From a virus (lineage: Duplodnaviria; Caudoviricetes): a DNA stretch of 47,799 nt. Positions 9,266 to 47,487 of this stretch are shown here, in pieces; positions within the stretch are counted from its first letter, which is position 1, and every line of letters starts with the position of its first letter. A program made the position numbers and the translations under genes. The DNA lies in IMG/VR virus record IMGVR_UViG_3300032075_000005, positions 1 to 47,799 of that record. One strand, written 5' to 3'. Below the pieces are notes generated by a model, which was not told the DNA's origin, did no database searches, and saw only the letters and a list, made by a program, of their open reading frames with translations.

Positions 9266-9516
9266 GGCGACTGAGTGAGTCGCCTCGGAGCGCGGAGCTT
9301 TTACAGGGAAGGAGGCTTTTACGTAAGTTCCGTACCTTTTGAGAGGTAACTGGGGGTCAACATAACCGGCCTTGGTAGCAGGGAACGTTAAGCAGGTGGC
9401 CCGCACTTGGTTGATAGGTGTACCATCACTGTCGCTGCATCCTACAAGATCAGCAGACCACCTAACCCTGGAGGATTGTAGTAACAAGTTCCTTCTGGTT
9501 AAAAACTAACCTCAGC
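9266..9516 (+). repeat. Dispersed structured element A
   Basis: Hairpin GGCGACT/AGTCGCC, then TCGGAGC, module CAGCAGACCA..CTGGAGG, ending GGTTAAAAACTAACC-TCAGC. Confidence 0.8.
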
Positions 9517-9531
9517 ACTGGAGTACTAAGC

Positions 9532-9864
9532 ATGGACCTTAACGAGTACCAACAGCTGGCGCACGCAACAAGTGCATTTGAGCATAACGATGCACAGCGC
9601 GATAATGTTCTCATGGCCACTCTAGGCTTATGTGGTGAATCAGGCGAGGTGGCAGACTTGCTCAAGAAGCATTACTTTCATGGTCATCCACTCGACAGAA
9701 CACAGTTAATTAATGAGCTGGGTGATGTTGCGTGGTATTTAGCTGAATTGTGTACAGCATTTAATATATTACTCAGTGAGGTCGTCGGCGGCAATATTAC
9801 TAAACTCCGTGCACGTTATGGAACTGCTTTCAGCGCCGAGGCTTCAATCAACAGGAAGGATTGA
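9532..9864 (+). CDS. MazG-like nucleotide pyrophosphohydrolase
   Basis: LGLCGESGEVADLLKK..ELGDVAWY..N..KL..RY. Confidence 0.9.
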   Translation: MDLNEYQQLAHATSAFEHNDAQRDNVLMATLGLCGESGEVADLLKKHYFHGHPLDRTQLINELGDVAWYLAELCTAFNILLSEVVGGNITKLRARYGTAFSAEASINRKD

Positions 9865-9866
9865 AC

Positions 9867-10093
9867 GCTGAGGTTAGAATCTAACCGTAACGGCACAGTG
9901 CTCAATGTAGGTTAGGTCCACAAACGTGCTAACCTCCGAAAGGTTATATGGAATGAGCTGCACAGGGCCACTGTTGTTGCAAGCGCCACTCCACCGTCGT
10001 CAACAAGTTCCGATAGCAGGGGGCCGCTTTAGGCAGGCCCACTGCGCTACGTGGACTGCGGTGGTTCCTGCGGCATCGCGGCAACGCTGCCGC
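9867..10093 (-). repeat. Dispersed structured element B
   Basis: On the - strand: hairpin GCGGCA/TGCCGC, then GATGCCGCAGG..GCAGTCCA, ending GGTTAGATTCTAACC-TCAGC. Confidence 0.8.
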
Positions 10094-10118
10094 AACCCAC
10101 GTAAACCTAATAGAATTC

Positions 10119-10147
10119 TTGATAAACGTACAATTCCGTGGTATAAT
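10119..10147 (+). promoter_or_regulatory. Sigma70-type promoter
   Basis: TTGATA-17 bp-TATAAT with extended -10; spacer similar to the 12381 promoter. Confidence 0.75.
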
Positions 10148-10189
10148 TACTGTATAGTTCAAGTGTTCACTAACTGAAAGGAATTACTG

Positions 10190-10426
10190 TTGGAACTAGT
10201 TGATATTCTAACTTCTGATTATCGCAGCACACAATGTAACGCCTCTGTGAAGCGTGAGGGAAAAGCCTATCGTTGTCACCATCAAGCAAACTATGTTGTT
10301 CATGGCTCAACACAACACGTGCGTTTCTGCAAGTTTCATGCAAGTACTCTAGCCAAAGAGCTAGCGCAAGAACTGTTTCAAACTGAGCTCGTACATTGGT
10401 ACGAAAAGGAAACCAAGCATGAATGA
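10190..10426 (+). CDS. Hypothetical Cys/His-rich protein
   Basis: AAAGGA RBS and TTG start downstream of the promoter. Confidence 0.65.
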   Translation: MELVDILTSDYRSTQCNASVKREGKAYRCHHQANYVVHGSTQHVRFCKFHASTLAKELAQELFQTELVHWYEKETKHE

Positions 10427-10553
10427 ACACTTCCATGAATGTCCCGATTGTGATGAAGTCTGGTCGTGTGAAGCACACGATTGTGAGCATTCATCTGAGT
10501 GGCAATGTTCTGACTGTTTCAATCAGCTGAGGCTGATTGACTATATTGATTAA
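10419..10553 (+). CDS. Small Cys-rich protein (44 aa)
   Basis: Below the track cutoff; MNEHFHECPDCDEVWSC...CSDCF; AAAGGA RBS. Confidence 0.65.
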   Translation: MNEHFHECPDCDEVWSCEAHDCEHSSEWQCSDCFNQLRLIDYID

Positions 10554-10597
10554 GACGGCTTCGCCGAACCACCGCGCCATAGTAACAGGAGATTACC

Positions 10598-10768
10598 ATG
10601 CATAGATTTACTTTTACCGATGACGAAGTATTCCAGCTGCTACAAGCAGCAGATGAACGTATACTCGATATGTGTGAGGGTGCAGAGAAAGCTGCACTGA
10701 CTAACGCTGCTACAATGCTTGCCAATGTGCAGCAACTTATCAACGACCGTAACGAAGTGCCTGAATAA
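10598..10768 (+). CDS. Hypothetical protein (56 aa)
   Basis: Below the track cutoff; AGGAG RBS. Confidence 0.65.
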   Translation: MHRFTFTDDEVFQLLQAADERILDMCEGAEKAALTNAATMLANVQQLINDRNEVPE

Positions 10769-10784
10769 CTAAGGAAAATAACTA

Positions 10785-11174
10785 ATGATCTGCCCTAACT
10801 GCAAAGAAGAACTGAAACTCGAAGGTGATTTCTATTCCTCACAAGTGGACCTGGACACTAACAGTGAGGTTGATGGTGAGGTAGTAATTACTTTCACTTG
10901 CGCTGAATGCGACAGCGATCTTGGTGAGTACTCATTCGACCTGGAATTGGATATAGCTGATTTTGCTGCCGAGCATGAAGATGAGGAGGAACATGAGCTC
11001 TCGGTTGATATCTCAGATGAATCCTACGACGAATACGTGAATAAAGAAACTGGCGCTGTGAGTCCTGGCGCGAGTGCTGCTGTTCGTGTTAGCTGCGTCT
11101 GTGGTAAGTCTGTAGAATATCAGTGGACTAATTACGAATCACTCGAGGAAATAGCTACAGCATTTGAACTATAA
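10785..11174 (+). CDS. Highly acidic Zn-binding protein (129 aa)
   Basis: CPNC, CAEC and CVC motifs; about 35 D/E versus 5 K/R. Confidence 0.8.
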   Translation: MICPNCKEELKLEGDFYSSQVDLDTNSEVDGEVVITFTCAECDSDLGEYSFDLELDIADFAAEHEDEEEHELSVDISDESYDEYVNKETGAVSPGASAAVRVSCVCGKSVEYQWTNYESLEEIATAFEL

Positions 11175-11247
11175 CGGCTCTGCCGAACCGCCGCTTGGTA
11201 GTATCACGAATATTACTGAGCGGCCCGGCTTAAAATTTTCAGTTTGG

Positions 11248-11276
11248 TTGACAAACATGCGTTCGTGTGGTATAAT
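11248..11276 (+). promoter_or_regulatory. Sigma70-type promoter
   Basis: TTGACA-17 bp-TATAAT with extended -10. Confidence 0.85.
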
Positions 11277-11322
11277 CACTGTATGATCGGTGATGCGGCC
11301 ACAAACTGAAAGGATGAACTAA

Positions 11323-11715
11323 GTGAAGGTAGGATTTACTGGTACTCACCTCGGTATGACTTTTAATCAACAGGATTCATTACGAAACTTTCTAATGGAG
11401 CCTACGTTCACTGAGCTTCATCATGGAGACTGTATTGGTGCCGATGCTCAGGCTCACGCAATCGCTTTGCCGATGGGCTTTCATATCATAGTTCATCCAC
11501 CACTTGATCCAAGGAAGCGTGCATGGGTAGCTGGTACTGGAGTGCATATACTGCTGCCATGTAAATACCTTGATCGTAACAAGGATATTGTAGATACCTC
11601 TGACATACTGATTGCAGCGCCTAAAGAGATGAAAGAAATACTTCGTTCAGGTACTTGGTCAACTATTCGGTACGCACGTAAGATCGGTCGTCAAATCATT
11701 ATACTGGAGCCGTAA
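11323..11715 (+). CDS. SLOG-superfamily (YspA/DprA-like) protein
   Basis: VGFTG..HHGDCIGAD..RNKDIVD..SGTWSTIRYARKIG. Confidence 0.75.
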   Translation: MKVGFTGTHLGMTFNQQDSLRNFLMEPTFTELHHGDCIGADAQAHAIALPMGFHIIVHPPLDPRKRAWVAGTGVHILLPCKYLDRNKDIVDTSDILIAAPKEMKEILRSGTWSTIRYARKIGRQIIILEP

Positions 11716-11717
11716 CT

Positions 11718-12128
11718 ATGACGCCAGAACAGAAAGCCGAACTGTTAGCGATGCTCAAGGAACTTACTCCTGCCGATCAGCGAGTAATAAAGTATCAGGC
11801 TAAGGGTGGACACAAGTGCACAGACAGCACTAACCTAGTAAACTGTTGTGGCATCTCACGATGCCAAGCGTGTCACATTCCTCATCTGAAGGAGCAGCAT
11901 ACCATTGAGCAATTGCACGCCTATCAGAAGTTCGTAGGCGCAAGATCACTGACATGGCAAGTACGCGAATATAAACTTCCGCTGCCTGCTAAGAAACAGC
12001 CTAAGGTGAACAAGAAAATTACAAGTGCACCGCGTGAGAAGTATAATCCTGCAACTATCGTCAACGCAGTTAGTGAGGATCAACTCGAGAATGTACTGGC
12101 AATGATCGAAGCGAGGCTGAAGAAGTAA
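11718..12128 (+). CDS. Hypothetical protein
   Basis: Coupled ORF with a Cys/His cluster. Confidence 0.7.
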   Translation: MTPEQKAELLAMLKELTPADQRVIKYQAKGGHKCTDSTNLVNCCGISRCQACHIPHLKEQHTIEQLHAYQKFVGARSLTWQVREYKLPLPAKKQPKVNKKITSAPREKYNPATIVNAVSEDQLENVLAMIEARLKK

Positions 12129-12361
12129 TGGAACACGACTGCATAAGTAGTGGTAATCCAATCTACTTTCTAGACAGCATGTTCTTGTGTGCTGGATGCT
12201 ACGCACGGCGTGCATTAAGCGTACATGGTAAAGAAGCACAATTTCTTAATGGTGTGCTGACGATGACCGAGTACAAAGACTTAACGTACTTGAATCCTAC
12301 CAACGAAGCGTTGGTCTTACGAGCTAAATTATACAAGGAGTATCTATCGACTCAAAATTAA
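12128..12361 (+). CDS. Hypothetical protein
   Basis: TAATG overlap with the upstream gene. Confidence 0.7.
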   Translation: MEHDCISSGNPIYFLDSMFLCAGCYARRALSVHGKEAQFLNGVLTMTEYKDLTYLNPTNEALVLRAKLYKEYLSTQN

Positions 12362-12380
12362 CAAGTGGTGCATTTTGTGG

Positions 12381-12409
12381 TTGACAAACTCACAATTTCG
12401 TGGTATACT
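12381..12409 (+). promoter_or_regulatory. Sigma70-type promoter
   Basis: TTGACA-17 bp-TATACT with extended -10. Confidence 0.8.
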
Positions 12410-12489
12410 TACTGACAGTGAAAGGTGGTGCAGCAAAAAGTGTGCTGGACGACTCATTTCATTCAACTAACAATGTGAAAGGTAATTCA

Positions 12490-13017
12490 ATGAAGGCAGA
12501 ACAAGTTAGCGTAAAGACCACTGGAAAACCAGAAATGGAATTCTCCTACAACTTCTCTGAGAATATTGAAGAAGCTGTAACGATGTACGGTGCCGAAAAT
12601 ACTCATGAACTGTTCAAGCGTGCACTTACGATTGCTGCTCAGGCCAACGCACGTAAGATGCTCAGTGCTGGTCTGACCGCTGAGCGTATCCAGAACGATA
12701 TGAGCAGCTGGAAGCCTGGTGTGAAATTGAGTGGTGTGTCTGCTGTTAAGACAGTTGATCCGGTCAAAGTTATCAGTGAGAACTTCGATGACTGGACTCC
12801 TGAGCGTCAGGAAGAAATACTGCGGCTTATTCAGGAGCGTTTTGCCAAGCGTGGTGCTACACCTGAGGTTCCTACCACTAATGGTAGCGAGGGTGAGCCG
12901 ACAGCAGAAGAGATTGCAGCTATCACTGAAGGCGTGAATGGTGGCGAGGAGACTCCTGCTTCTGATGCGACAGCAGAGTACAATCCAGCTGAAGCACGTC
13001 GCCGCCGTGACCGCTAA
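12490..13017 (+). CDS. Hypothetical protein with acidic C-terminal tail
   Basis: ATG at 12490 follows AAAGG; the track's upstream start overlaps the promoter. Confidence 0.8.
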   Translation: MKAEQVSVKTTGKPEMEFSYNFSENIEEAVTMYGAENTHELFKRALTIAAQANARKMLSAGLTAERIQNDMSSWKPGVKLSGVSAVKTVDPVKVISENFDDWTPERQEEILRLIQERFAKRGATPEVPTTNGSEGEPTAEEIAAITEGVNGGEETPASDATAEYNPAEARRRRDR

Positions 13018-13065
13018 GGTTAAAATCTAACCGTAACACGGGCTGGTGCTCACTTTGGCCAGCCC
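13013..13065 (-). repeat. Mini-copy (J) of the element family: palindrome 13018-13032 plus hairpin
   Basis: On the - strand: GGGCTGG..TGAGCA-CCAGCCCGTGTTAC-GGTTAGATTTTAACC-TTAGC, matching the 3' ends of B, C and F. Confidence 0.7.
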
Positions 13066-13086
13066 TAAAGGAACAAGGGAGAATAA

Positions 13087-13446
13087 GTGAGTGAACATAA
13101 GAAAGTATATGTAGTAGCTAAAGGATTTCACGATTGGAATTCTGCTGCACAACATGGTGAGCTTGTGTTCCTGTCAACTGAACCAGTTGGACGAACAGCA
13201 ATTAGTAACATGCTGCGAGAGTTCCTACCAAGAATGGTAGATAGTGAGCCAGAAGATCACATCGTGATTACTGGACTCTCAGTAATGTGCTCAATGGCGT
13301 GCGTGATATTTGCACTCAAACACAGGAGGTTAAACCTATTACTATTCGACGCGGCTACTGACAAGTATGTAAAGCGTACAGTTATGCTGGATTCAATTGA
13401 GCAAGTAGAGAAAGAATTAGATGAAGCTATTAGACATACTACCTGA
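13087..13446 (+). CDS. Hypothetical protein (119 aa)
   Basis: GGGAG RBS, GTG start. Confidence 0.8.
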   Translation: MSEHKKVYVVAKGFHDWNSAAQHGELVFLSTEPVGRTAISNMLREFLPRMVDSEPEDHIVITGLSVMCSMACVIFALKHRRLNLLLFDAATDKYVKRTVMLDSIEQVEKELDEAIRHTT

Positions 13447-14422
13447 GCAAGATACGTGGAACGTAGTAGATCCTTCAAAGCTGAGTGTATACATGGCTTG
13501 TCCACGCAAGTATATGTATGAGCACATATTGCAGTGGAGAGAGGATTACGTTAACAATCACTTACATTTTGGAAGCTGCTGGCACTTAGCTGTCGAGCAT
13601 CTGCTGAATAATCAATACAGTAAGGAGTCGATAGAAGAGGCGTGTTACTTATTCTATAATGCCTACAGATCAAAGTTAAGTGATGAGAGCGATGGTTCAT
13701 TTGCTCCCAAAGATCCGGCTAATGCAATGAAGACATTGATGCAATACGCGCAGCGATTCGCTGGTGATGCTAGGGATTACAAGGTACTCGGTACTGAGAT
13801 AGGAGGCACAGTACTGATTGCACCAGATAGCGCGATGTACTTCAAGATTGACGCGTTACTGCAGCGGGAGCGTGATGGTAAGATTATATGCTTAGATCAC
13901 AAGACCTCACAGCGTCGTATGGGCAATTGGAGTGAACAGTGGTTACTGTCTACACAGATGCTAACTTATCTGCACGTTTTGTACTGCCTGTTTGGAGAGG
14001 ATAATTTGGTAGGTGGCATACGTGTTAGGTGTAGTTTCTTCTACAAGGCTAAGCCGAGTGAATTCGACGAGGCGATAGTAGAAAAAAGCCTTGGCCAAAT
14101 GCAAGCGTTCGTAGATAGCACACGAAACTGGTATGATAACCTAATGTACGATACTCAATACTTGAAGGAGACTGATGATACTGAGAATCCAACGCTGCGA
14201 AGTTTCGCTATGAATCCAAACGCCTGCTTTAGTTACGGTAGGAAGTGTAGCTATTTCGATTTCTGTTCCGCTTGGAGTAACCCCCTCACTAGATGCGAAC
14301 AGGTACCTCTAGGCTTCAAGCGAGAAGTATGGGATCCCCGTGAGCAGCATACTAACATAACGTTGGACTTGACAAAGCCAGCGGAGGATCAGAGTGGGGT
14401 ATCCACCGTACAGTCTAGCTAA
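13421..14422 (+). CDS. PD-(D/E)XK (Cas4/RecB-like) exonuclease
   Basis: CPRKY..FG..WH..KIDALL..LDHKT..Q..Y and a C-terminal C..C..C cluster. Confidence 0.85.
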   Translation: MKLLDILPEQDTWNVVDPSKLSVYMACPRKYMYEHILQWREDYVNNHLHFGSCWHLAVEHLLNNQYSKESIEEACYLFYNAYRSKLSDESDGSFAPKDPANAMKTLMQYAQRFAGDARDYKVLGTEIGGTVLIAPDSAMYFKIDALLQRERDGKIICLDHKTSQRRMGNWSEQWLLSTQMLTYLHVLYCLFGEDNLVGGIRVRCSFFYKAKPSEFDEAIVEKSLGQMQAFVDSTRNWYDNLMYDTQYLKETDDTENPTLRSFAMNPNACFSYGRKCSYFDFCSAWSNPLTRCEQVPLGFKREVWDPREQHTNITLDLTKPAEDQSGVSTVQSS

Positions 14423-14894
14423 GCGTTTAGATATAGTGTACAGCAAATGCCGGAGGGATAATAATCTCTGTTTAATATGGCTGGGTGCTTGTACTAGAAA
14501 TGGATACGGTAAGATTGGTATAGGAGGACGCACACTTGTATTGCATAGGTGGATATGGGAAGTATATCATGGACCTATTCCTGGCAAGCTTCAAGTGAAT
14601 CACCTGTGCAGAGTACGTAATTGTATAGAAGTAAGACATATGGAGCTTGTAACCAGTGGTGAGAATACTAAGAAAGGTGCGCTGCCATTCGTCAACCGAT
14701 TGCGCGCCTTGATGCAAGCAGTGTGCAAGAGAGGACATGAATTTACTCCAATAAATACTGGTCGAACAGCTAAAGGAGGAAGGTATTGTAAAGCTTGCAA
14801 GCGTGAGAACTGGATAACGAAAGAGCATCGTGAGAAGCTAATGAAAGTAACTTTGTGGATGACTCTAAAGAACGGCAACAGAGTCTACCGATAG
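14394..14894 (+). CDS. HNH homing endonuclease
   Basis: CLIWLGA..GYG..HR..VNHLCRVRNC..H..N and CKRGHEF..CKAC. Confidence 0.85.
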   Translation: MGYPPYSLAKRLDIVYSKCRRDNNLCLIWLGACTRNGYGKIGIGGRTLVLHRWIWEVYHGPIPGKLQVNHLCRVRNCIEVRHMELVTSGENTKKGALPFVNRLRALMQAVCKRGHEFTPINTGRTAKGGRYCKACKRENWITKEHREKLMKVTLWMTLKNGNRVYR

Positions 14895-14943
14895 ATAGTG
14901 GTGCTAAGCAGTTCATCGACTTAACAAAGGAGCAAGTATCAGA

Positions 14944-15177
14944 ATGACTATTACTAATCACCTGCAGCGAATCGTAGCATTAGGTTTCGCTGGTGTACAA
15001 GTGTGGGAAGGTACAACTAAAGGAGTGTGGTGTGGATGCTTACTCAGTAACGATCCGTACTGCAAGCCTCTGCACTATACGAACTTATGGAATTACGTAA
15101 GTACGGTAGAAGAAGTGTTTGAGATATTAGCCAAAACCGCTGAAACAATAGCTAAGGAGCAAGCAAGTGCCTCTTGA
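14944..15177 (+). CDS. Hypothetical protein
   Basis: AAGGAG RBS; coupled to the next gene. Confidence 0.7.
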   Translation: MTITNHLQRIVALGFAGVQVWEGTTKGVWCGCLLSNDPYCKPLHYTNLWNYVSTVEEVFEILAKTAETIAKEQASAS

Positions 15178-16530: not shown

Positions 16531-16532
16531 TT

Positions 16533-16724
16533 GCGCGTGACACGCGCTCGGTCACTCAGGTGACAGAAGTGGAGACGGGTTGTTCCAAAGAGTTACTCAC
16601 AAGAATTGGTGCAGCCCGTCCACTTTCCCTACACACGTGAGCCAGCACGTGCTTCGAGTTCCGTACATTGGCGCAACTCTGATTGTTGGCTACGGAAAAA
16701 CATGCCGGTTTGTGAGCACCGGTT
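16533..16724 (+). repeat. Dispersed structured element H (ends at a half-palindrome)
   Basis: Hairpin GCGCGTG/CACGCGC, then TCGG. GATTGTTGGCTACGGAA matches element C (GATTGTTGGCGACGGGAA). Ends TGAGCACCGGTT. Confidence 0.7.
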
Positions 16725-16742
16725 GACAGGAGTAGGAGCAGT

Positions 16743-16973
16743 ATGAATAAGTCCTACACACACCGCGTAACATTCGAGGTAACTGATGCCCAGTACAATA
16801 AGCTGAAGCAGCACCTAGAGCACGGAATGCTGAAGCGAGTATTCTCCGTGATTGTAGATGACGCAATAGTTATGCTAGATGAGTTCGGGCCGTACTTCGT
16901 GATAGCAATGCTTAGTCGTGAAGTGAGTTATAGGAAGATGGTTCAGGACTACATGAGACAAGCAGGTGAATAG
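16743..16973 (+). CDS. Possible ribbon-helix-helix DNA-binding protein
   Basis: RVTFEVTDAQYNKLKQHL..G....FSVIVDDAI fits a strand-helix-helix pattern. Confidence 0.5.
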   Translation: MNKSYTHRVTFEVTDAQYNKLKQHLEHGMLKRVFSVIVDDAIVMLDEFGPYFVIAMLSREVSYRKMVQDYMRQAGE

Positions 16974-16979
16974 CGCTAA

Positions 16980-16994
16980 GGTTAAGTTTTAACC
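16980..16994. promoter_or_regulatory. Solo 15-bp palindrome GGTTAAGTTTTAACC
   Basis: Matches the motif; preceded by GCTAA. Confidence 0.75.
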
Positions 16995-17003
16995 GGAGTA
17001 GCA

Positions 17004-17525: not shown

Positions 17526-18875
17526 ATGCCTACAATCAATTTAGGAATTCTACGCATCGTACCAATGGAGCAAATTGATGCAGCTATGGAATCACGTGGT
17601 CGTCAGTCCTACGGCATCATCCAGGACTTCATGACATCTATCGAAAAGTACGGATTAATTCACCCAATCGCTGTTTACTCACCTAATGGAGAACCACCAT
17701 ACAAACTAATAGCTGGAGGTAGACGATTCCTAGCATGTACTGCACTTAAATGGACAGAGATTAGCTGTCGCATCTACGACAAGCCAATGACTGAACTTGA
17801 GCTTGCCGCTGTTGAACTGTTCGAGAATCTCGACAGACTCAATTTGAACTACGATGAAGAAGTAAAGATGAAAGAGCGCCTACACTTAACACTGGTGCAA
17901 ATCCACGGTCAGAAAATAGCTCGCAGTGCAGACGCACCAGGACACTCTATTCGTGATACGGCACGACAACTTGGTGTTAGCCACGCCACAGTTATTCAGG
18001 ATATGAAACTAGCTGAAGCCATGCGCCTCTTGCCTGAGCTTGAATTAGATAAGGAGAAGAATAAATCAGCAGCAATGAAGAAGCTCTCACGCTTCGCTAA
18101 TGTAATGACGAATAAAGTTGCTGTTGCTGAAGCTCGCAAGGACGCAGTGCTCTCTGGACGTATGTCATCACCTGATGATCCACTCAGTGCATATGTAGTA
18201 GGTGACTTCTTTGACAATACACTTGAGTCAGGACAGTTCAGTTTTATTGAGTGTGATCCACCGTACGGAATTGACCTACAAGAACAACGTGCCGATGGTG
18301 ATAGCGATGGTTCATTACAGCACGATTATAAGGAGATTAGTAACGTAGATTATTTAGCATTCTTGAACAAGCTAACAGATGAGTGCTATCGCCTCGCTGC
18401 AGATAATAGCTTTATTATTATCTGGTGCGGTCCAGAACATATTGCACGTGTTATAAGTGCTATGCAACGTGCGAAGTTCGAAGTTACTAAAATTCCTGCT
18501 ATATGGAAGAAGGGATTATCGCAAGGACAGGCTCAAGGAATGAATACTAACTTAGGTAACTCCTATGAAATGTTCGTGTATGGGCGTAAAGGAAGTGCTC
18601 AGATACGTAAACAGGGTAGGAGCAATGTTTTCGACTTCAATGGAGTCCCATCATCACAACGTATTCATCCAACCGAACGGCCACCAGCGTTAATGAGAGA
18701 ACTCATTGATACCTTCGTTTGGCCAGGATCGAATGTACTCGTGCCATTCGCAGGAAGTGGAGTAACAATACGCACTGCATTCGAGCTTGGTCACAAAGGA
18801 ATTGGTTATGACTTAAGTTCACACTTTCGTGATGCCTATATAAATAGGCTAATACAAGAGGTAGGAGCAAAATGA
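17526..18875 (+). CDS. ParB-like N-terminal domain + HTH fused to an N6A/N4C DNA methyltransferase
   Basis: GLIHPI..LIAGGRR (ParB Arg patch), HTH SIRDTARQLGVSHATV, DPPY, HPTERP and PFAGSG. Confidence 0.88.
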   Translation: MPTINLGILRIVPMEQIDAAMESRGRQSYGIIQDFMTSIEKYGLIHPIAVYSPNGEPPYKLIAGGRRFLACTALKWTEISCRIYDKPMTELELAAVELFENLDRLNLNYDEEVKMKERLHLTLVQIHGQKIARSADAPGHSIRDTARQLGVSHATVIQDMKLAEAMRLLPELELDKEKNKSAAMKKLSRFANVMTNKVAVAEARKDAVLSGRMSSPDDPLSAYVVGDFFDNTLESGQFSFIECDPPYGIDLQEQRADGDSDGSLQHDYKEISNVDYLAFLNKLTDECYRLAADNSFIIIWCGPEHIARVISAMQRAKFEVTKIPAIWKKGLSQGQAQGMNTNLGNSYEMFVYGRKGSAQIRKQGRSNVFDFNGVPSSQRIHPTERPPALMRELIDTFVWPGSNVLVPFAGSGVTIRTAFELGHKGIGYDLSSHFRDAYINRLIQEVGAK

Positions 18876-19090
18876 GTGGTAAGAAGAAGACTCATTGTGT
18901 GAGGGGGCACGAATATACTAAAGAAACTACGCGGTATCAAAAGGATAAAAATGGAGTAACTCATCGCCGGTGTAAGTTATGCCAGAAAATCTCACGTCGA
19001 GAGAGGAAACTATATGTCGAGCTTAGTAGGACCAGACGGAAGCCTATCAGCAAAGATAGCAATAGTAGGAGAACAGCCAGCAAAGTATGA
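18872..19090 (+). CDS. Small basic Zn-binding protein (HNH C-terminal module without the nuclease domain)
   Basis: THCVRGHEY..RRCKLC matches the tails of the HNH genes at 4150, 14394 and 30763. Confidence 0.6.
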   Translation: MSGKKKTHCVRGHEYTKETTRYQKDKNGVTHRRCKLCQKISRRERKLYVELSRTRRKPISKDSNSRRTASKV

Positions 19091-21497
19091 AGTTAAGTAT
19101 GGTAAGCCATTCATGGGTCCGGCTGGAAGGAACTTGAATGAATGTCTACAGAATGCACGCATTGCACGCAGCGCATGTTACCTCACAAATGTAGTGAAGG
19201 ATGTTGAGTTTGAATTAGATCGCTACTTTCAGTTGAGAGGAAAGAAAGCAGGCGTAACAGCGTTGGGACAACGCTACATAGAGGTACTGCGTGATGAGCT
19301 TATGGAAAGTAAAGCGAATGTTATCATCGCACTTGGTAACACTGCGCTATTTGCGCTTTGTGATCGCACTGGAATTACTGCATGGCGCGGCAGTGTTATT
19401 GAGTCGACTCTCATTCCTGGCAGAAAGGTCATACCTAGTTTACACCCTGCAATATACACTGACGAAAAAGTGCTGGCAAATCCTGCAGCGTATCTCGCGA
19501 AGTACTTAATCACTATAGATTTTAAGAAAGCTAAAGCTGAGTCTGAGTTCTCAGAACTCCGTTTGACTGATCGCAAACTGCTAATACATCCAAGTTACTA
19601 CGAAGCCATTAGCTGGCTAGAAGAGTGTAAAGAATACGCAGAATACGGAGGTATAGTTTATTACGACATTGAACTCACTCCAAAGACTCAGGAGCTAAGC
19701 TGTATAAGCTTTGCGACAGGACCAGTTGACGTAATGTGTATTCCTTTTGTAGATGCCAGTGGTGATTACTTTACTGCGGAGCAAGAGTATAAGATAATGC
19801 TCAGTATCGAGGACCTGCTATCTAATGAGCGTTGGATGAAAGGTGGTCAGAATGCTATCTTTGATTCGCATTTTCTATTACGTAAGTATGGCATACGCAC
19901 TCGCAATCTTGTTGGCGACACTATGATTGCGCAGCATATACTATATCCGGATTTTGGAGGTAAGACTTACAGGGGTAAGTCGTTAGAATTTATCACGAGT
20001 ATGTGGACTGACGTACCATACTATAAGCGTGATGGTAAACTGTGGCTAACAGGAGTAGGAGAATACAGCAAAGGATGGAACTACAATTGTTTAGATTCAA
20101 TAGTATGTGCTGATGCATTTCCTAAGCAATTAGCTGAACTGGAAGAGCGTGGTAATTACGATGCATATGAGCGGCAGATAAAACTGATTGGCCCATTAAG
20201 CTATATGATGGAGCGTGGGATTAAGATAGATAAAGAAGGAATGGAACGAGCTGCAAAGAATGCTATATTCGAAGCCAGTGAATTGACACACCAAGTTTAT
20301 TCGCTTACAGGATGTGAGTTCAATCTAGCTAGTCCACAACAGGTAGCAGAATACTTCTACGACAAGTGTAAAATAGAACCCTATCTAAGCAAGAAAGGTA
20401 AACCTACTACTGATGAGGAGGCGCTGAAACGCATAGCTAATAAGGGCTTTAGAGAAGCTAGCTTAATACTCGAGATTCGTAGCTTGCAAAAGATGGCATC
20501 GACATTCCTTAATGTGAATAACGTGGATGAAGATGGGCGAATGCGTTGCTCATACAATCCAGTTGGTACGAGATTCTCACGCATCTCGAGTAGTGGTAAC
20601 ATCTTTGGAACAGGAGTGAATTTACAGAACGTACCACATGAAGTGCTGAGTTATTACGTGGCAGATGAGGGACATATTATATACTCATTAGATATGAGTC
20701 AGATTGAGGCAAGGATTGTAGCGTACGTAGGTAACATCACTCAAATGAAAGAAGTATATGAAAAAGGATTGGATATACACCGACAGACAGGGTCACTCAT
20801 ATTCAATAAGCCGTATGATGAAGTCAGTACAGTACCAGGGTCAAGCACGCTCGGCAATGGAACTTACAGTGAGCGCGATTGGGCTAAGAGAGCCAATCAC
20901 GGTTTCAATTACGGTTTTGGATACAAGTCCTTTAGTCTCGACTACGAAATTCCTGAGCGCCAAGCTAAGTTCGTGTATGACCGATATCATTCAGCTTATC
21001 CAGGGCTTAAAGGAGGATACTGGAAGTATGTAGAAGAATCACTTAAGAAGACTCATACACTGACCAATCTATACGGTCGGAAGATTACGTTCTTAGGTAA
21101 GACATCTGCAAACTTGCTCAATGAAGCATACTCATGTATTCCACAAGGAACATGTGGTGACTTAGTAAACGAGCAAGGACTAAACTACGTATACTATAAT
21201 AGTGATACATTGTTCCGGCATGTTGAGCTGCTAATGCAAGTACACGATTCAATAAGTATACAAGTGCCGCTGTCATTGCCACTAGCGGATCATGCTAGAA
21301 TTCTATTGAGTATTAAAGCATCGCTGGAAGCTCCACTCAGATTTGGCAGGGATGAATTTGTCGTGCCGGTTGATTTAGTTGTTGGTACGTGCTTAAATAA
21401 AAAGAAAGGAGTTGAGCTGACGGGTTCGAAGTTCAGCGAAGATGCTGGTATGCTTGAAGCATACTTACAAGATGCACTAATAATGCTGGGGATATAA
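19014..21497 (+). CDS. polA: Family A DNA polymerase with N-terminal uracil-DNA-glycosylase-like domain and 3'-5' exonuclease
   Basis: UDG-like IVGEQP..PFMGPAG..HPA; exonuclease DIE/NAIFD/YNCLD; motif A DMSQIEAR, motif B KRANHGFNYG, motif C QVHDS. Confidence 0.93.
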   Translation: MSSLVGPDGSLSAKIAIVGEQPAKYEVKYGKPFMGPAGRNLNECLQNARIARSACYLTNVVKDVEFELDRYFQLRGKKAGVTALGQRYIEVLRDELMESKANVIIALGNTALFALCDRTGITAWRGSVIESTLIPGRKVIPSLHPAIYTDEKVLANPAAYLAKYLITIDFKKAKAESEFSELRLTDRKLLIHPSYYEAISWLEECKEYAEYGGIVYYDIELTPKTQELSCISFATGPVDVMCIPFVDASGDYFTAEQEYKIMLSIEDLLSNERWMKGGQNAIFDSHFLLRKYGIRTRNLVGDTMIAQHILYPDFGGKTYRGKSLEFITSMWTDVPYYKRDGKLWLTGVGEYSKGWNYNCLDSIVCADAFPKQLAELEERGNYDAYERQIKLIGPLSYMMERGIKIDKEGMERAAKNAIFEASELTHQVYSLTGCEFNLASPQQVAEYFYDKCKIEPYLSKKGKPTTDEEALKRIANKGFREASLILEIRSLQKMASTFLNVNNVDEDGRMRCSYNPVGTRFSRISSSGNIFGTGVNLQNVPHEVLSYYVADEGHIIYSLDMSQIEARIVAYVGNITQMKEVYEKGLDIHRQTGSLIFNKPYDEVSTVPGSSTLGNGTYSERDWAKRANHGFNYGFGYKSFSLDYEIPERQAKFVYDRYHSAYPGLKGGYWKYVEESLKKTHTLTNLYGRKITFLGKTSANLLNEAYSCIPQGTCGDLVNEQGLNYVYYNSDTLFRHVELLMQVHDSISIQVPLSLPLADHARILLSIKASLEAPLRFGRDEFVVPVDLVVGTCLNKKKGVELTGSKFSEDAGMLEAYLQDALIMLGI

Positions 21498-21499
21498 GC

Positions 21500-22696
21500 A
21501 TGACGAGACAGTTGAGTGATTTCCTGGATGCATACTTATATTTCACTGAGGAGACAGAACCATGCGAATTGTATAGGAAATGGGTCGGCGTGTCTGTAAT
21601 AGCTGCTGCCTTACAGCGTAAGTGTTACTTAAAATGGGGTAGCCAAACATGGTTTCCTAATTTATACATAGTTTTAACCGGTCCTCCAGGTGAACCTCGT
21701 AAAGGTACAGCGATGGCCTCAGGTTATAGTATACTAAGGCCACTTGGTATTAAGTTATCAGCTGATAGGTTGACACCTGAATACTTTATTAAGGAGCTAA
21801 GTTCGTGCTTGATAACTACTCAGTTCGATGCTGGCAAATTTATGAATCACTGCTCGCTAACAGTATTTAGCAAGGAGCTTACTGTATTCATAGGCTACAA
21901 AAATTCACAGTTCTTGGCCGATCTTACAGACTTGTACGATTGTGCGGACGACTGGTCGTATAGGACTAAAGGAGGTGGGAACTTTGAAATAACTGGTGCA
22001 TGGCTTAACATGTTAGCTGCGACTACACCTGAACAAATACAGGCAGCACTTCCAGCTGAAGCTGTAGGTGGAGGATTCGCTAGTCGTGTACTATTTATAT
22101 ATGCTGATAAGCGAGGTAAAACTGTGCCTGTTCCTATTGAGGATATGGAACTGAAGGAGAAGCTTATAGCTGATTTGGAAGAGATCTCGTTATTAGGTGG
22201 GCCATTCCTTGCAACGAATGACTATATAACGACCCGAACTGAATGGTATGTAAGTCAGTCACAAGAAACTCAAGTGATACAAGATGCGAGATTTGCTGCA
22301 TATTATAGTAGGAAAGCAAGTACTGCCACGAAGCTGAGTATGATACTGAGCGCATCACGTAGCGATGAAATGAAGCTGCGAGAAGTAGACTTCCTTCGAG
22401 CGGTGGAAATGTTAGATGAAGCTGAGATACCTATGATGCGAGCACTCAGTGGTGTAGGTAAATCAGACTACGCTGAAATACTTCCGCAAGTTATGGAGGA
22501 GATATTGAAGCATAAAGAAGTGACTATGCGATACTTAATGAATAGGTTCGCACATGACACCACTCAGTTTCACTTAATGAAGATGGTAGAGACGCTTGAG
22601 CTAATGGGAGTATTAGCGTATGCACCAGTTACAAAGAAGGTACACGTAAATCCGGACTTTGGTAAAGGAATATCACAGAACGGGCAAGTTAATTAG
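21500..22696 (+). CDS. DUF3987-like P-loop NTPase (putative replicative helicase)
   Basis: NLYIVLTGPPGEPRKGTA, LYDC..YRTK, GFASR; follows the polymerase. Confidence 0.65.
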   Translation: MTRQLSDFLDAYLYFTEETEPCELYRKWVGVSVIAAALQRKCYLKWGSQTWFPNLYIVLTGPPGEPRKGTAMASGYSILRPLGIKLSADRLTPEYFIKELSSCLITTQFDAGKFMNHCSLTVFSKELTVFIGYKNSQFLADLTDLYDCADDWSYRTKGGGNFEITGAWLNMLAATTPEQIQAALPAEAVGGGFASRVLFIYADKRGKTVPVPIEDMELKEKLIADLEEISLLGGPFLATNDYITTRTEWYVSQSQETQVIQDARFAAYYSRKASTATKLSMILSASRSDEMKLREVDFLRAVEMLDEAEIPMMRALSGVGKSDYAEILPQVMEEILKHKEVTMRYLMNRFAHDTTQFHLMKMVETLELMGVLAYAPVTKKVHVNPDFGKGISQNGQVN

Positions 22697-22699
22697 TTG

Positions 22700-22897
22700 A
22701 TTCCGCGTCTACGCGGGATGCCGCAGGACGAGAAGCAGTCCATTACTGCGCTTTGGTTGCTAACATAAGAAGGGTTTGGGGATCTTCGGATTGTTGGCGA
22801 CGGGAAGATGCGGGCCGGTTAGCACAAGAGGGATTAGTTAGAATAACCCTGAAGGATGTTACTGGCCCGTACAGTTCGGTTAAAATCTAACTTCAGC
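22700..22897 (+). repeat. Dispersed structured element C (at the convergence of the two arms)
   Basis: Hairpin CCGCGT/ACGCGG, then GATGCCGCAGG..GCAGTCCA; C(TTCG)G loop and G-T stems on the + strand; ends GGTTAAAATCTAACT-TCAGC. Confidence 0.8.
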
Positions 22898-22899
22898 AG

Positions 22900-28725: not shown

Positions 28726-28747
28726 TAGCTAATCCTTTAGTCTACAA

Positions 28748-29004
28748 CCGGACTACCGTCCGGACCTGCGGCCTGCAAGTACCAAGACTGTGACTCAAGG
28801 AGCGTACCGGGCCTCCCACTCAAAGAAGCAGCAATCATCCAACGGACTCCTACAGCAAACTGTTGTCTCTAGGAGGAGATGCGGCGGCGCTAGTAACAGT
28901 GCAATCAGCACCAGGGCCGCTTGACTCAGGATGCTGCGAAAGAGGTTAGTACGTCTACCTCCTAAGAGATGTTGAGCATTGTGCCGTGCGGTTAGATTTT
29001 AACC
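28748..29004 (+). repeat. Dispersed structured element D
   Basis: Hairpin CCGGAC/GTCCGG, then ACCTGC; TCATCCAACGGA shared with F; 3' end GAGGTTAGTACGT..TTGAGCATTGTGCCG..GGTTAGATTTTAACC closely matches B. Confidence 0.8.
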
Positions 29005-29198
29005 AAACTGATGAGTGCCAGTACTTCATCCCATGAGCTACCTCTGAGCTGGAACCGCTCGGTGTTGTGTGATGCTAAACGGCGCCGCTTCTCTTCCCGT
29101 CGCCAACCAAGTCTTTTCGACCAGTTCTCCGTCCTGAGTAAAGCCTTCATCCTGTTGGTGCTACTCGGCATATGAGGGGCTCCGAGCGGTGCCACCGC
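28990..29198 (-). repeat. Dispersed structured element E (shares its palindrome with D)
   Basis: On the - strand: hairpin GCGGTG/CACCGC, then TCGGAGCCCCTCAT and GGTCGAAAAGACTTGGTTGGCGAC, both closely matching F. Confidence 0.8.
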
Positions 29199-29202
29199 AA
29201 AC

Positions 29203-38064: not shown

Positions 38065-38264
38065 GCGGGCATGCTGCCCGTACCTGCTCGGAGCCCCCTC
38101 ATCCAACGGAGTACACCAAAACCTTGCGAAGGCTCCTCATATAAATTCCTCGGGTCGAAAAGCTTGGTTAGCGACTGGAGGAAAAGTCCCGCCGACCACA
38201 GCAGACCATATAAGCTGGAGGCACCCTGCTTACCGGCCCGTTATGGTTAAAACTTAACCTAAGC
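38065..38264 (+). repeat. Dispersed structured element F
   Basis: Hairpin GCGGGCA/TGCCCGT, then ACCTGCTCGGAGCCCCCTCATCCAACGGA, ending GGTTAAAACTTAACC-TAAGC. Confidence 0.8.
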
Positions 38265-44640: not shown

Positions 44641-44653
44641 AAATAGCTCCTGA

Positions 44654-44668
44654 AGTTAGATTTTAACC
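44654..44668. promoter_or_regulatory. Solo 15-bp palindrome AGTTAGATTTTAACC immediately after the capsid stop codon
   Basis: Matches the motif with one mismatch, with a CTGA flank. Confidence 0.75.
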
Positions 44669-45958
44669 TTACGGACGATCCAAACCTATACCGTTAAGCA
44701 ATCCAAATTTCAGTGGATGATGGTACTCTAAGCCGCACTCTGTTAACCACTCCTCCTTGGTTCCATCAAGCCGCTCATGTGAGGGCGAAACTTTCGTGGT
44801 GTCCATGCTCATGAAAGTCGTGTCGTCAATGTAGCGATATTTGAGCATACTCGGCTCAAGTACTACCATTAAATTTCGCGTCGTTAACTCGTAACTGAAT
44901 AGCGGATGTGTCATTAAGTTGATAGTGCCAAAGGGTGAAATCCACTGCATAACCTTAAGCCCATAGGAAGTAGACATTGGTGTGAGGTTAATTTGTCCAG
45001 CTGCTTTTGCAAGGCGGTTAATGCCGAGTATGGCACCGCTGCCTGCAAACACCATCTTATCGCCGCTTCCATAACGGAAGATTACTTCCATTGCTGCATC
45101 TAGCCACGCTTCACCACCAACTATCCAATCAGTACCTGCTGTAATGCCAGCGTCAGTAGTGTAATTGAATACGTTTGTTGGTGCACCTGTCTTAATTGCC
45201 TGAATCAAGCCCATAGTAGTACGTTCGGGCTTACCATTAGTGCCAACGTTTTCAGTCTTGATGCCCCAGAAGAAGGCTTTCTCAAGTTCAATTGAGTGAA
45301 GTTCGAGTGCTTCACGTTTTGCTTCTTTGTACGCATCTTCAGTACGCAGTCGGGTTTTGCGTGCAGTACGAGTAATATCGAGTGGAGTACGAAAGATTTG
45401 CGTGAAGTTATTCCACTTTACTGGATCATAGGCAATAGCATCAGGAATCGGTGCGCCTTCAGCATTGATGTTACCAATAACAAGTATTGTATCGCAGCTG
45501 CCTAATGTAGTAGCACCACCGTTGTCGTCGGCCTCAAGCAGTCTTACGACAAGCTGTGAGTTAGCACCAGCGAGAGTACGGCCAGTAACTTTAGCATTAA
45601 CATCCACGTTGAGATTAGTGCTTACACGCAGCAGAACTTGATGGCCGACACGAAATTCAGTAGCAATAGCTTGTGCTAGTTTAACGTAAAGTGTTGCGCC
45701 AGCTGTACCGCCAGTAGTGTATGCAGTAAGCATACCTGAATCAGTGTACACATCAGTAACAGCGCCACCCTGAGCTGGCAGCAATTTTGTCCACCAATTG
45801 AATTCGGGATCATCAACTACTTCTTCACCCATCTTACTGAGTAAGCCAGTAAGTGGGGCTGATCCATTCGGATACAAATAAAGTATTCCTTGCCGCCAGT
45901 TTTTGGGACGCTCATCAGTTGCCCAGTCACCAGTTCCACGCATTCCCATGAAAGCCAT
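44669..45958 (-). CDS. Major capsid protein (SU10/DUF5309-like)
   Basis: NFTQIFRT..S/T.TA..E.EKAFFWG..TMGL..FGTINL..HPLF..TECGLE. Confidence 0.88.
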   Translation of the reverse strand: MAFMGMRGTGDWATDERPKNWRQGILYLYPNGSAPLTGLLSKMGEEVVDDPEFNWWTKLLPAQGGAVTDVYTDSGMLTAYTTGGTAGATLYVKLAQAIATEFRVGHQVLLRVSTNLNVDVNAKVTGRTLAGANSQLVVRLLEADDNGGATTLGSCDTILVIGNINAEGAPIPDAIAYDPVKWNNFTQIFRTPLDITRTARKTRLRTEDAYKEAKREALELHSIELEKAFFWGIKTENVGTNGKPERTTMGLIQAIKTGAPTNVFNYTTDAGITAGTDWIVGGEAWLDAAMEVIFRYGSGDKMVFAGSGAILGINRLAKAAGQINLTPMSTSYGLKVMQWISPFGTINLMTHPLFSYELTTRNLMVVLEPSMLKYRYIDDTTFMSMDTTKVSPSHERLDGTKEEWLTECGLEYHHPLKFGLLNGIGLDRP

Positions 45959-46013
45959 AATATTATCCTTCGTCAGTTGGCTCTGAAGCCCAGCACTACT
46001 TCAGAAGGTTAAG

Positions 46014-46244
46014 TTATAAAGTTTGCTCTTCTTCTTCCTCAGGAGGCGGAGGAGGCGGAGGAGCTTCTGTAGTTTGAACTGTCAATGTACGTGTTGATAC
46101 TTGTGCTGGTGTGCCAGCATTATATTCGGTGCCGTCAGTAAGCTTGAAAACATGCCCTTCTTCAATTAGGCGCTCTTCAGTAGTGGAGCCTAGTAACTTG
46201 TCTAAGCAGTGCCGATCATAACGCGATACATATATTTCTGACAT
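46014..46244 (-). CDS. Hypothetical protein with Pro/Glu tail
   Basis: AAGGA RBS; lies between scaffold and capsid. Confidence 0.7.
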   Translation of the reverse strand: MSEIYVSRYDRHCLDKLLGSTTEERLIEEGHVFKLTDGTEYNAGTPAQVSTRTLTVQTTEAPPPPPPPEEEEEQTL

Positions 46245-46261
46245 AATTAGTTCCTTAATTA

Positions 46262-46996
46262 CTATAGGTCAACGAGTTCCATTATCTCTTTTTCGATGCC
46301 TACTAATTCAGGCTCGAGATTAGCTTTACGGCCTCGTTGAGGTGCGAAACTCTTACTCGGCTTAACTACGGCATCACGCGCCTCAAGCTTCTTAAGTTTT
46401 AGCGCGGTGCGAACATGAGTTGCAGTTTTCGCGAATACCTCCTGTGGTTTAAGTTCAGGATTATCTCTCGAGATGTCCTTTGCATACGCAGCAACAGTGC
46501 GCCGGAATGGGCGCAAGTCTTCATTTTGCTCATAGAACTCCTTAACCATCTCACTCATTGTGAGTTGCTCTCGCACGTAGCGCGAGACAAGATCTTGCAC
46601 AGAGCCAAGCACATTGTCTGAAGCTCGGCGCATCGACTCGCTAACGCCACGATTGTATACAGCAAGTAGAAGTCGGTTGAGATTCTCGCTACTGCTGAGT
46701 ACTTCGTCGAGGTCAAGTCCATCGAGAAAGTCTGGATCAGATTCTGGCTCTCGAGTAGTTTCTTCATTGACTGGTACCTCACGCTCTAACTGCAAGCGCC
46801 TACCAGTCTCCTCCTCTAAGCGAGCAAGTAGTGCTGATTCGTGATCACCTTCTTCATCAGGTAAAGGTTCACCAGCTGGATCTACAGGCTCATTTGGCTC
46901 CTCAGGAACTTCACGTGGATCAGGCGGTAATTGAGGCTCAGGTTCAGTGTGAGTCGGTTCTGGTCCGAAATCTAATAAGTCAAAGTTCTCGGCCAT
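46262..46996 (-). CDS. Capsid scaffolding protein
   Basis: Acidic disordered N-terminus and helical C-terminus, upstream of the capsid gene. Confidence 0.7.
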   Translation of the reverse strand: MAENFDLLDFGPEPTHTEPEPQLPPDPREVPEEPNEPVDPAGEPLPDEEGDHESALLARLEEETGRRLQLEREVPVNEETTREPESDPDFLDGLDLDEVLSSSENLNRLLLAVYNRGVSESMRRASDNVLGSVQDLVSRYVREQLTMSEMVKEFYEQNEDLRPFRRTVAAYAKDISRDNPELKPQEVFAKTATHVRTALKLKKLEARDAVVKPSKSFAPQRGRKANLEPELVGIEKEIMELVDL

Positions 46997-47228
46997 TATG
47001 CTCTCCTTCTAACGCAAGTATTATATTCTGTGGCAAACTAAGGAAGTGACGACAGGCTTCAGCGATACCCTGAAATCGTTTTATCTCACTCATATCTTCT
47101 TCTATTTCAAGTTTGTTGCGTACGTCATCAAGCCACGCGTCTATTTCGCGTACTAAATCATTCCAGGCAACGGATTCTAGTAAAGCATGATGTTCTGCAA
47201 GTGTTGCGTGTAAGTTTTGTTCTGACAT
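46980..47228 (-). CDS. Hypothetical protein (portal-adjacent)
   Basis: ESVAW..FQG...L.LP pattern typical of small genes after the portal. Confidence 0.7.
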   Translation of the reverse strand: MSEQNLHATLAEHHALLESVAWNDLVREIDAWLDDVRNKLEIEEDMSEIKRFQGIAEACRHFLSLPQNIILALEGEHNGREL

Positions 47229-47240
47229 TTAAATACCTTT

Positions 47241-47487
47241 GCGCGATAGATCGCGCGATTCCGCATCACGGCACGCAGTCCAGTTAGCGTATTAGTTGTA
47301 CTGTAAGATCGACCTACCAAATCCATCAGCGGGCCAACCTGCTTCGCAGTGGCCCTTTCATATAACCCCTCGGAGGGTTAGCCACGGGATGGATGCGGCG
47401 CTGTAAGCGATTGGGCCTGCCAGCGACGGAGGCCGTAGCTCGATCGTGTTGCTCATAGGACCAGTTCGGTTAAATTCTAACATCAGC
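47241..47487 (+). repeat. Dispersed structured element G
   Basis: Hairpin GCGCGAT/ATCGCGC, then GATTCCGCA..GCAGTCCA; CAGTGGCCCT..CATATAACC..TCGGAGG shared with B; ends GGTTAAATTCTAACA-TCAGC. Confidence 0.8.

Follow-up and report, generated by a model that had tools for sequence, protein, structure and literature searches.

Introduction

Plasmids and phages with single-stranded DNA (ssDNA) are known to carry single-strand promoters and primosome sites, in one or a few copies that are fixed. The oriV of RSF1010 brings together iterons, a helicase and the signals ssiA and ssiB on opposite strands, with a primase of the plasmid's own and one origin, and the stoperators of mycobacteriophage L5 are asymmetric 13-mers without attached cassettes. 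Here we analyse a family of mosaic intergenic elements (cassettes) and the spaced palindrome (site) beside them in IMG/VR virus record IMGVR_UViG_3300032075_000005 (Duplodnaviria; Caudoviricetes), positions 1 to 47,799 of which, 47,799 nucleotides in all, are called the window below. The Frpo/ssi (single-strand initiation) promoters of the plasmids F and ColIb-P9 have a fold-back design (PMC11541004, PMC9849209, citing Masai & Arai 1997), GCGNAGC-type DNA mini-hairpins stand at the G4 and RSF1010 priming sites and at the N4 promoter (PMC13037366), and the phiX174-type primosome site (n'-pas) and ColE1 ssiA are described without coordinates (PMC5778457, PMC3167613). The literature searched, which covered few subscription papers, held no description of such cassettes in phages with double-stranded DNA (dsDNA). 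We find that the window and its relatives carry a two-part system, real and undescribed, made up of a clade-wide putative protein site and a lineage-specific set of exchangeable cassettes.

Results

A mosaic family of fixed polarity

An original prediction, made from the letters of the window, had described eight elements (A to H) and two mini-copies (m1 and m2), each full element opening on a GC-rich hairpin, passing through a linker and shared modules, and closing on a palindrome. All ten were recovered at the coordinates given, and every named module was located in the elements for which it had been named (Table 1). The end palindromes are present, although C and G end on one-mismatch copies and D and E use a single palindrome (28990-29004) between them; the linkers are mostly as described, except that H has TCGGTC, not TCGGAGC, and that in F a TCGGAGC comes after ACCTGC. 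After trimming of 28 nt from the end of each element but H, which was kept whole, the eight interiors have 37 nine-mers in common, compared with a mean of 4.4 (maximum 14) in 300 dinucleotide shuffles, and 8 common twelve-mers, compared with 0.1 (maximum 3). This excess over shuffled DNA, which the prediction had anticipated, is found on one strand, as only 2 nine-mers are common to opposite strands. Two of the modules each have a single copy within genes as well, GTTRRCNACKG at 33876 and CATATAACC at 42352.

The elements A, B, H, C and m2 recur at 99.9-100% in other assemblies (L001, L009 and L011; relatives are referred to by our own handles). Among the relatives, G003_18450L resembles C in its first 107 nt and E in its last 80 nt, the two parts overlapping at a common TTGTTGGCGAC module, and G003_31283R combines the first hairpin of B with the linker of G. 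The C-like/E-like mosaic bears out the proposal of an uncharacterised family with fixed ends and recombined interiors, and the family of eight elements is real, mosaic and of fixed polarity to the palindrome. As the prediction had also stated, it matches no known family: Rfam 15 gave no covariance-model match on any element, at E<=5 in the window and E<=1 in 60 kb of relatives, and BLASTn found nothing beyond chance for the A-B region among phages or for D-E among plasmids. Likenesses to Csr/Rsm sponges, riboswitches, the signal recognition particle RNA, hammerheads and dif/attC sites were unsupported by Rfam or alignments, and a MITE or integron cassette was rejected, given one site per element, the commonness of bare sites and no recombinase in the scanned proteins.

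Table 1. Features of the window. For cassettes, the strand listed is the one predicted to serve as single-stranded template; the original prediction read them on the other strand.
Feature	Position	Strand	Evidence
Site 1 (m1)	3573..3587	.	<=1 mismatch scan
Mini-cassette m1, hairpin + first half of core block	3588..3634	+	core rank 10; similar mini-copies in G002, L025, L030
Site 2, bare, flanked by two perfect sigma-70 promoters that diverge (-35 boxes 7653, 7734)	7683..7697	.	
Cassette A (class I), core block 9352-9380	9266..9496	-	core rank 9 (model without window elements); counterparts in G001, G003
Site 3 (cassette A)	9497..9511	.	
Site 4 (cassette B)	9872..9886	.	
Cassette B (class I), core block degenerate	9887..10093	+	outside top 22 core matches; mosaic kin G003_35702L, G003_31283R
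Site 5 (m2)	13018..13032	.	
Mini-cassette m2, hairpin beside palindrome	13033..13065	+	kept in L002, L013, G001
Cassette H (class I), core block 16695-16718	16533..16724	-	85% to L111
Predicted ribbon-helix-helix (RHH) protein, 76 aa, candidate site binder	16743..16973	+	model pLDDT 88.9
Site 6, bare in window, just after RHH gene; class II alongside in L002, G002, G007	16980..16994	.	
ParB_N-HTH-methyltransferase (N6/N4) fusion, alternative candidate site binder	17526..18875	+	domain scan
Family A DNA polymerase (PolA), uracil-DNA-glycosylase-like (UDG-like) N-terminus	19014..21497	+	domain scan
MCM-like AAA+ helicase, 398 aa, no primase domain seen	21500..22696	+	predicted structure
Cassette C (class I), core block 22801-22824	22700..22877	-	core rank 1 (26.1 bits); 91% to L111
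Site 7 (cassette C), one mismatch	22878..22892	.	
Cassette D (class I), core block 28872-28895	28748..28989	-	core model + slot comparison
Site 8, common to D + E	28990..29004	.	
Cassette E (class I), core block 29073-29097	29005..29198	+	faces D across one common palindrome
Cassette F (class I), weak core block 38177-38203	38065..38244	-	core rank 15
Site 9 (cassette F)	38245..38259	.	
Site 10, bare, after major capsid gene	44654..44668	.	
Cassette G (class I), core block 47386-47409	47241..47467	-	core model + slot comparison
Site 11 (cassette G), one mismatch	47468..47482	.	

The palindrome is a separate feature

At up to one mismatch the palindrome occurs in 11 copies, all intergenic, compared with 0-2 in 20 shuffles, and these sites occupy short gaps between genes, often right behind a stop codon. 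Three cassette-free copies (7683, 16980 and 44654) had been overlooked; H has lost its palindrome in the window, which is whole in L002/L111, G002 and G003. Close relatives, with capsids 80-83% identical (G001, G002, G003, G006, G007 and G008), carry 7-12 copies each, and four distant genomes (capsid 52-60%) carry 7-11 copies each of their own versions of the 15-bp palindrome, two of them with near-same TTGCTAT-type flanks. No GC-rich cassettes were seen beside the sites of these four. The post-capsid position has a site in the eight whole genomes listed, the Desulfofustis phage excepted, and more palindrome variants were found in 15 of the 68 loci scanned, some of which repeat a genome or may be chance. 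Because the palindrome is present alone, both in the window and in distant relatives, it is not part of the element, as had been supposed; judged by this distribution, it is a separate feature, older than the cassettes and clade-wide.

Across 68 close-group sites the arms of the palindrome pair no more than the consensus predicts, and the central bases vary between sites. Arms that do not covary would be expected of a dimer reading duplex DNA, not of a hairpin under pairing selection. Each lineage of the clade (L103, which is OP947158, G010, G011, G012 and further loci) has its own repeated intergenic palindrome of 6-3-6 spacing, which the GenBank record does not annotate.

Class II cassettes occupy the same slots

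We sorted 151 site flanks by module content and GC, which gave 24 class I elements, the kind present in the window, and 21 class II elements from relatives. Three orthologous duplicates were dropped, so that the counts below refer to 22 class I and 20 class II elements, and two GC-rich G007 flanks were left unclassified. The strand with the palindrome at its 5' side is called the site-5' strand. Aligned over the 20 elements, the site-5' strand of class II reads TTTTCCC..GGGGC, an unpaired stretch, CTGTCAAG, an apical loop, CTTGACA, 17-21 nt, a TAnnnT-like box and GCC..GGGAAA. One arm thus carries TTGACA-17..21-TAnnnT-like boxes and the other TGTCAA, which gives a paired -35, and the consensus -10 on one arm lies opposite a non-matching arm, which leaves the -10 open. 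Compensatory changes were found at 13 of 17 predicted pairs, and the mean DNA folding z is -3.9. Loops of the type c(GNA)g number 32 on the site-5' strand vs 5 on the other (5.7 and 5.1 in 200 shuffles) and are found in 19/20 elements; DNA mini-hairpins of this type have been reported for the G4 and RSF1010 priming sites (PMC13037366). The other strand has an excess of c(TNCG)g (10 vs 1.5 expected), in part at the same places, and mismatches have no G-T bias (18 vs 16). With this architecture, class II reads as a single-stranded-DNA promoter of the Frpo design. By the established chemistry of sigma-70, the non-template arm is the one that bears the consensus -10, so that the folded class II strand would be copied toward the palindrome. 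In viral contigs the class II pattern was found in this clade only, at 5 loci, and one class II copy compared with plasmids by BLASTn gave nothing beyond chance. The class I linker pattern was found at 13 loci in viral contigs, and the 10 from other contigs that were inspected all lack a cassette.

Among close relatives a given slot may be occupied by either class or be empty. At the D slot, L002, G002, G003 and G007 have class II, and G001 has class I; at the G slot, class II is found in L008, L023, G002 and G003, and G001 has an orthologue of G; at the C slot, G007 has class II and G001 a bare site, and at the F slot G007 again has class II. Both classes share, on the site-5' strand, a core block found by Gibbs sampling, T(G/A)CT(A/T)nCnGG(C/G)CG, 0-6 nt, GCATTTT(C/T)CC, which starts 6-133 nt from the site and always 3' of the palindrome. 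Its weight matrix comes from 39 of the 42 elements, B and two G003 copies having no clear block. When the model was built without the window's elements, C, E, D, G and H ranked 1, 3, 4, 5 and 6 in the window, A 9, m1 10 and F 15, with a coding match at rank 2 and B absent; when it was built from class II alone, C, E, H and D were in the window's top five and G was eighth. At 12 bits or more the core is present in 36/120 site flanks in the site-5' orientation vs 2 reversed, where the reversed count serves as the control for a model trained on these flanks.

Class I orthologues keep compensatory 5' hairpins, and their modules are strongly strand-biased. TGG(A/T)CTGC, which we take as no more than a lead to a G4-type DnaG site, is on the template strand in 9/22 class I elements and on the other strand in 0. 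It had been argued that G-T pairs favour folding of the hairpin-first strand, but isolated helix mismatches are G-T 4 times vs A-C 8 times in the window's eight elements and 14 vs 19 times in the 22 class I elements, and the core common to both classes sits on the opposite strand.

Tests against known priming signals

For comparison with known signals, in which the phiX174 primosome site was assumed to lie in the F-G gap and ColE1 ssiA in the region downstream of the origin, six reference regions were set against two classes on two strands (24 comparisons). The phiX174 F-G gap gave z 4.9 with class I and 4.1 with class II on the site-5' strand, and 0.9 and -1.1 on the other strand; the other 20/24 comparisons gave |z|<=2.0. 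A blind scan placed the F-G gap at rank 1 of 286 segments. The top matches of the core model in F and ColIb-P9 lie within a resolvase gene, with scores reached by chance in the window too.

A replication set without a detectable primase

The window is a complete phage genome of 47.7 kb with an overlap of 127 nt between its ends; in its classification the record has terminal repeats and a completeness of 100%. A scan of its 57 open reading frames matched, among others, an SU10-type capsid and portal, a terminase, the family A polymerase, a Sak4-like annealing protein, an exonuclease, MazG, several HNH nucleases and the ParB_N-HTH-methyltransferase; no integrase or recombinase, relaxase or transfer genes were found among the 57 scanned proteins. 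The 398-aa gene next to the polymerase is called a "primase" in PHROGs. A Walker A motif lies close to its start, and the predicted structure resembles MCM helicases, which suggests that the protein folds like an MCM AAA+ helicase. AEP, Prim-Pol and Toprim_2 primase families were found in none of the five genomes searched, one of them (G010) without cassettes. The replication set is PolA and the MCM-like helicase without a detectable primase, in keeping with the earlier remark that no primase had been recognised.

The 76-aa predicted RHH protein is the best candidate binder of the palindrome. The top structural matches of its model are mostly RHH proteins (DinJ, RelB, CopASO, NikR, ParR and PutA), weak at Z<=4.0; Pfam gave RHH_3 and NikA-like below the cut-off, and Foldseek gave no match for the model. 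The protein is present in all complete genomes searched and missing only from three fragments 50-61% complete; its match in G012 is weak (E 0.02). In G002, G003, L002, G010, G014, G017 and G019 a site precedes the gene of this protein by 20-290 bp, and none lies less than 300 bp upstream in G011, G015, G016, G018, G023 and the Desulfofustis phage. The ParB_N-HTH-methyltransfer­ase fusion (HTH, helix-turn-helix) is conserved across the clade and could be a site-loaded sliding-clamp methylase.

The closest named phage is Desulfofustis phage LS06-2018-MD01, with a polymerase identity of 40%. All 15 runs with at least half of the sampled words are soil metagenomes. One of 22 runs is RNA (share 0.05); its 8 contigs are scattered and shallow, and none lies over cassettes in 9260-29250, the only region checked, so that it is uninformative either way. 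Matches in genome collections are capsid relatives at 34-57% in mixed bins of metagenome-assembled genomes and point to no particular host; an OmpA-like protein and a lysozyme only suggest a Gram-negative host. The OmpA-family peptidoglycan-binding protein (32862-33473) adjoins the lysozyme gene and is patchy among relatives.

Among other features of the genome, a 1941-aa protein (22900-28725) differs widely in length and sequence among relatives; a virion RNA polymerase was considered for it and found no support, with no Pfam or PHROGs match and with large polyvalent (LPD/MuF-associated) proteins as its Atlas neighbours. Six HNH nuclease genes or fragments (4150-4644, 14394-14894, 17004-17525, 18872-19090, 30763-31191 and 7201-7560) are mostly missing from close relatives. 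An Rfam int-alpA RNA motif (31214-31281, minus strand; 60.4 bits, above the gathering score) lies directly upstream of an HNH nuclease gene, not of an integrase or alpA gene, and an ARAGORN tRNA-Leu call (34341-34415, plus strand) within a tail-fibre gene of the opposite strand is probably false. Three near-identical 24-nt hairpins (5923-5946, 6194-6217 and 6527-6550) each stand just before the ribosome-binding site of a small early gene, and their GAGCACC loop reappears in m2, H and G001.

Discussion

Cassettes as candidate priming signals

The explanation that we prefer, tentatively and with less assurance for class I, is that the eight elements are mosaic DNA cassettes acting as ssi-like signals that recruit host priming machinery. 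Its basis is the family itself, with its mosaicism, fixed polarity and common core, together with slot exchange, the architecture of class II, and a helicase and PolA without a detectable primase. Because relatives hold fold-back promoter cassettes in the same slots, the elements likely act on ssDNA and not as RNAs; between the two roles offered at first, the ssDNA signal fits the evidence from relatives, and the non-coding RNA or decoy has neither a G-U bias nor consistent RNA folding (z of -3.1, +0.8 and -0.7 for C, E and B, the three elements run) on its side.

Under this explanation, a dimeric phage protein, probably the 76-aa RHH protein, would bind the palindrome, and unwinding or strand displacement would start or stall at the site and leave the site-5' strand single-stranded, on which the cassette would fold. 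MCM-type helicases move 3' to 5', and one leaving a site in that direction would expose exactly the strand where the cassettes are predicted to fold. Host RNA polymerase would then prime class II, and a PriA-type primosome or another host factor may prime class I via the common core; from their single site, D and E would between them cover both directions, and recombination between copies at common modules would yield the shuffled interiors.

Several results weigh against this explanation. The window holds class I only, and none of its eight elements was found by a class II profile search or shows a TGTCAA/TTGACA rod. Class I folding is weak (mean DNA folding z -1.8), and its c(GNA)g loops lack a clear strand asymmetry (15 vs 14 at stems of at least 2 and 6 vs 1 at stems of at least 3 in the 22 elements; 2 vs 5 in the window's eight). 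Since class I folds weakly, misses the class II profile and lacks loop asymmetry, its strand and role are borrowed from class II. Class II in turn has mostly 17-18-nt spacers and a promoter facing a gene start, so that ordinary promoter use is possible, and G002 has at ~20980-21190 a complete class II cassette without a nearby palindrome, upstream of a small gene. Sites are present and cassettes absent in distant relatives, where no primase was found either (G010); cassettes are therefore not required for this replication set. As to known signals, the G4 complementary-strand origin gave |z|<=0.7 and ranks 43-93 of 200, the ColE1 region downstream of the origin reached only ranks 5 and 8 of 354 in the blind scan, the M13 minus-strand origin and the ColIb Frpo regions showed no similarity, and the core matrix recovered neither the phiX174 site nor the ColE1 ssiA region. 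Taken one by one, the alignments to the phiX174 site are short, with scores of 12-30 (15-22 for window elements), and owe part of their match to the GCGAAGC hairpin, and the beta-strand residues of the RHH protein do not map one-to-one onto the site sequence.

Alternative explanations

The alternative that survives best, unlikely as we judge it, is transcription control: the site would be a stoperator-like roadblock or operator for the RHH protein, class II cassettes would be promoters switched by fold-back or supercoiling, and class I would be decayed or rearranged derivatives keeping the common block. The position of sites in short gaps, often just past stop codons, and ahead of the RHH gene in seven genomes or loci agrees with it, as do the bare site at 7683 between divergent promoters and the class I module GTTRRCNACKG, which resembles a -35 box fused to the common block. 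Of the 20 class II promoters, 14 face a gene start, but 5 are antisense, facing the 3' end of a convergent gene (1 is without assignment). Spacers of 17 nt are found in 6/6 of the best ordinary phage promoters (from 29 sigma-70 matches). A duplex promoter needs no second TTGACA arm, covarying rod or strand-specific mini-hairpins, and the compensatory 5' hairpins between class I orthologues and the strand-biased modules speak against simple decay.

It is improbable that the hairpin-first strand is transcribed into diversified small RNAs (decoys, sponges or guides) ending at the protein-bound palindrome. A 5' GC hairpin and a fixed 3' end would suit a stable RNA, the modules are strand-specific, c(TTCG)g is in register in C, c(TNCG)g is enriched in class II, and 7/8 elements hold 5-7 GGA. 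However, Rfam gave no match, G-U pairs are not enriched, E and B fold as RNA no better than shuffles, none of the 29 sigma-70 matches lies upstream of A, B or H facing the element, and the exchangeable class II conserves promoter hexamers, which are read in DNA.

Still less probable is that the cassettes are ssDNA decoys or rescue signals after host attack, in which strands exposed up to the protected site titrate RNA polymerase, PriA or defence sensors, or fragments are re-copied, with diversity arising from an arms race or from selfish spread by recombination. Frequent replacement at the same slots in close relatives, mosaicism, the Sak4-like annealing protein, exonuclease and several HNH genes, and the absence of cassettes from distant relatives with the same replication genes would fit, but fixed polarity and the limited range of core-site distances are more simply a loading geometry. 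A palindrome that serves site-specific recombination, with the elements as integron-like mobile cassettes, is highly improbable, for although differing elements stand at the same site in relatives, each element has a single site, the central bases differ between sites, no integrase is among the 57 proteins and the arms do not covary.

Meaning and relation to described systems

If the cassettes do recruit host priming machinery, the fuller picture, which is conceivable and at present doubtful, is of a primase-less dsDNA phage lineage that replicates from about a dozen RHH-marked starts with swappable, recombining host-priming adaptors, in which class II makes use of RNA polymerase and class I represents a novel ssi signal read by PriA, DnaG or another host factor. 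Were it true, it would amount to an undescribed primase-free mode of replication, in a dsDNA phage clade with many signals, two designs exchanged at the same marked sites and shuffled parts. The roughly 40 natural variants would then help to define the ssDNA features recognised by host priming enzymes. The clade-wide palindrome, whose core varies by lineage, and the small conserved protein of predicted RHH fold offer in themselves a ready system for protein-DNA co-evolution.

Like the Frpo/ssi promoters, class II is non-coding, is present in several copies per genome and has a long imperfect fold-back that rebuilds a paired -35 with the -10 box on one arm. It differs in showing no sequence similarity to three ColIb-P9 leading-region stretches (|z|<=2.0) or to plasmids (BLAST), and in lying in a complete tailed dsDNA phage, on both strands and tied to a palindrome, rather than in a conjugative leading region; the window's own class I is without the fold-back rod. 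With the phiX174 n'-pas the cassettes share a short, strand-specific similarity to the F-G gap and GCG(A/T)AGC hairpins, whereas the core model misses that site and the per-element similarity is weak. As at ColE1 ssiA, the putative priming signal lies slightly 3' of a start site on the displaced strand. Compared by description, RSF1010 oriV has a protein-bound site, a helicase and opposed priming signals, to which the putative protein site, the helicase and the predicted opposed signals of D/E would correspond, and both systems have CCGAAGG-type mini-hairpins; here, unlike in RSF1010, no primase was found, there are 11 sites and the cassettes are interchangeable. REP/BIME, MITE and T4 PeSL cassettes are also intergenic, mosaic and spread by recombination, whereas the present elements are without terminal inverted repeats, no transposase was found and they are not confined to early promoters. 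Finally, L5 stoperators and Arc/Mnt-type RHH operators resemble the present system in their many short intergenic sites across the genome and in a small RHH protein, here predicted and a candidate binder; the stoperators are asymmetric and stand alone, whereas the sites described here are palindromes accompanied by cassettes.

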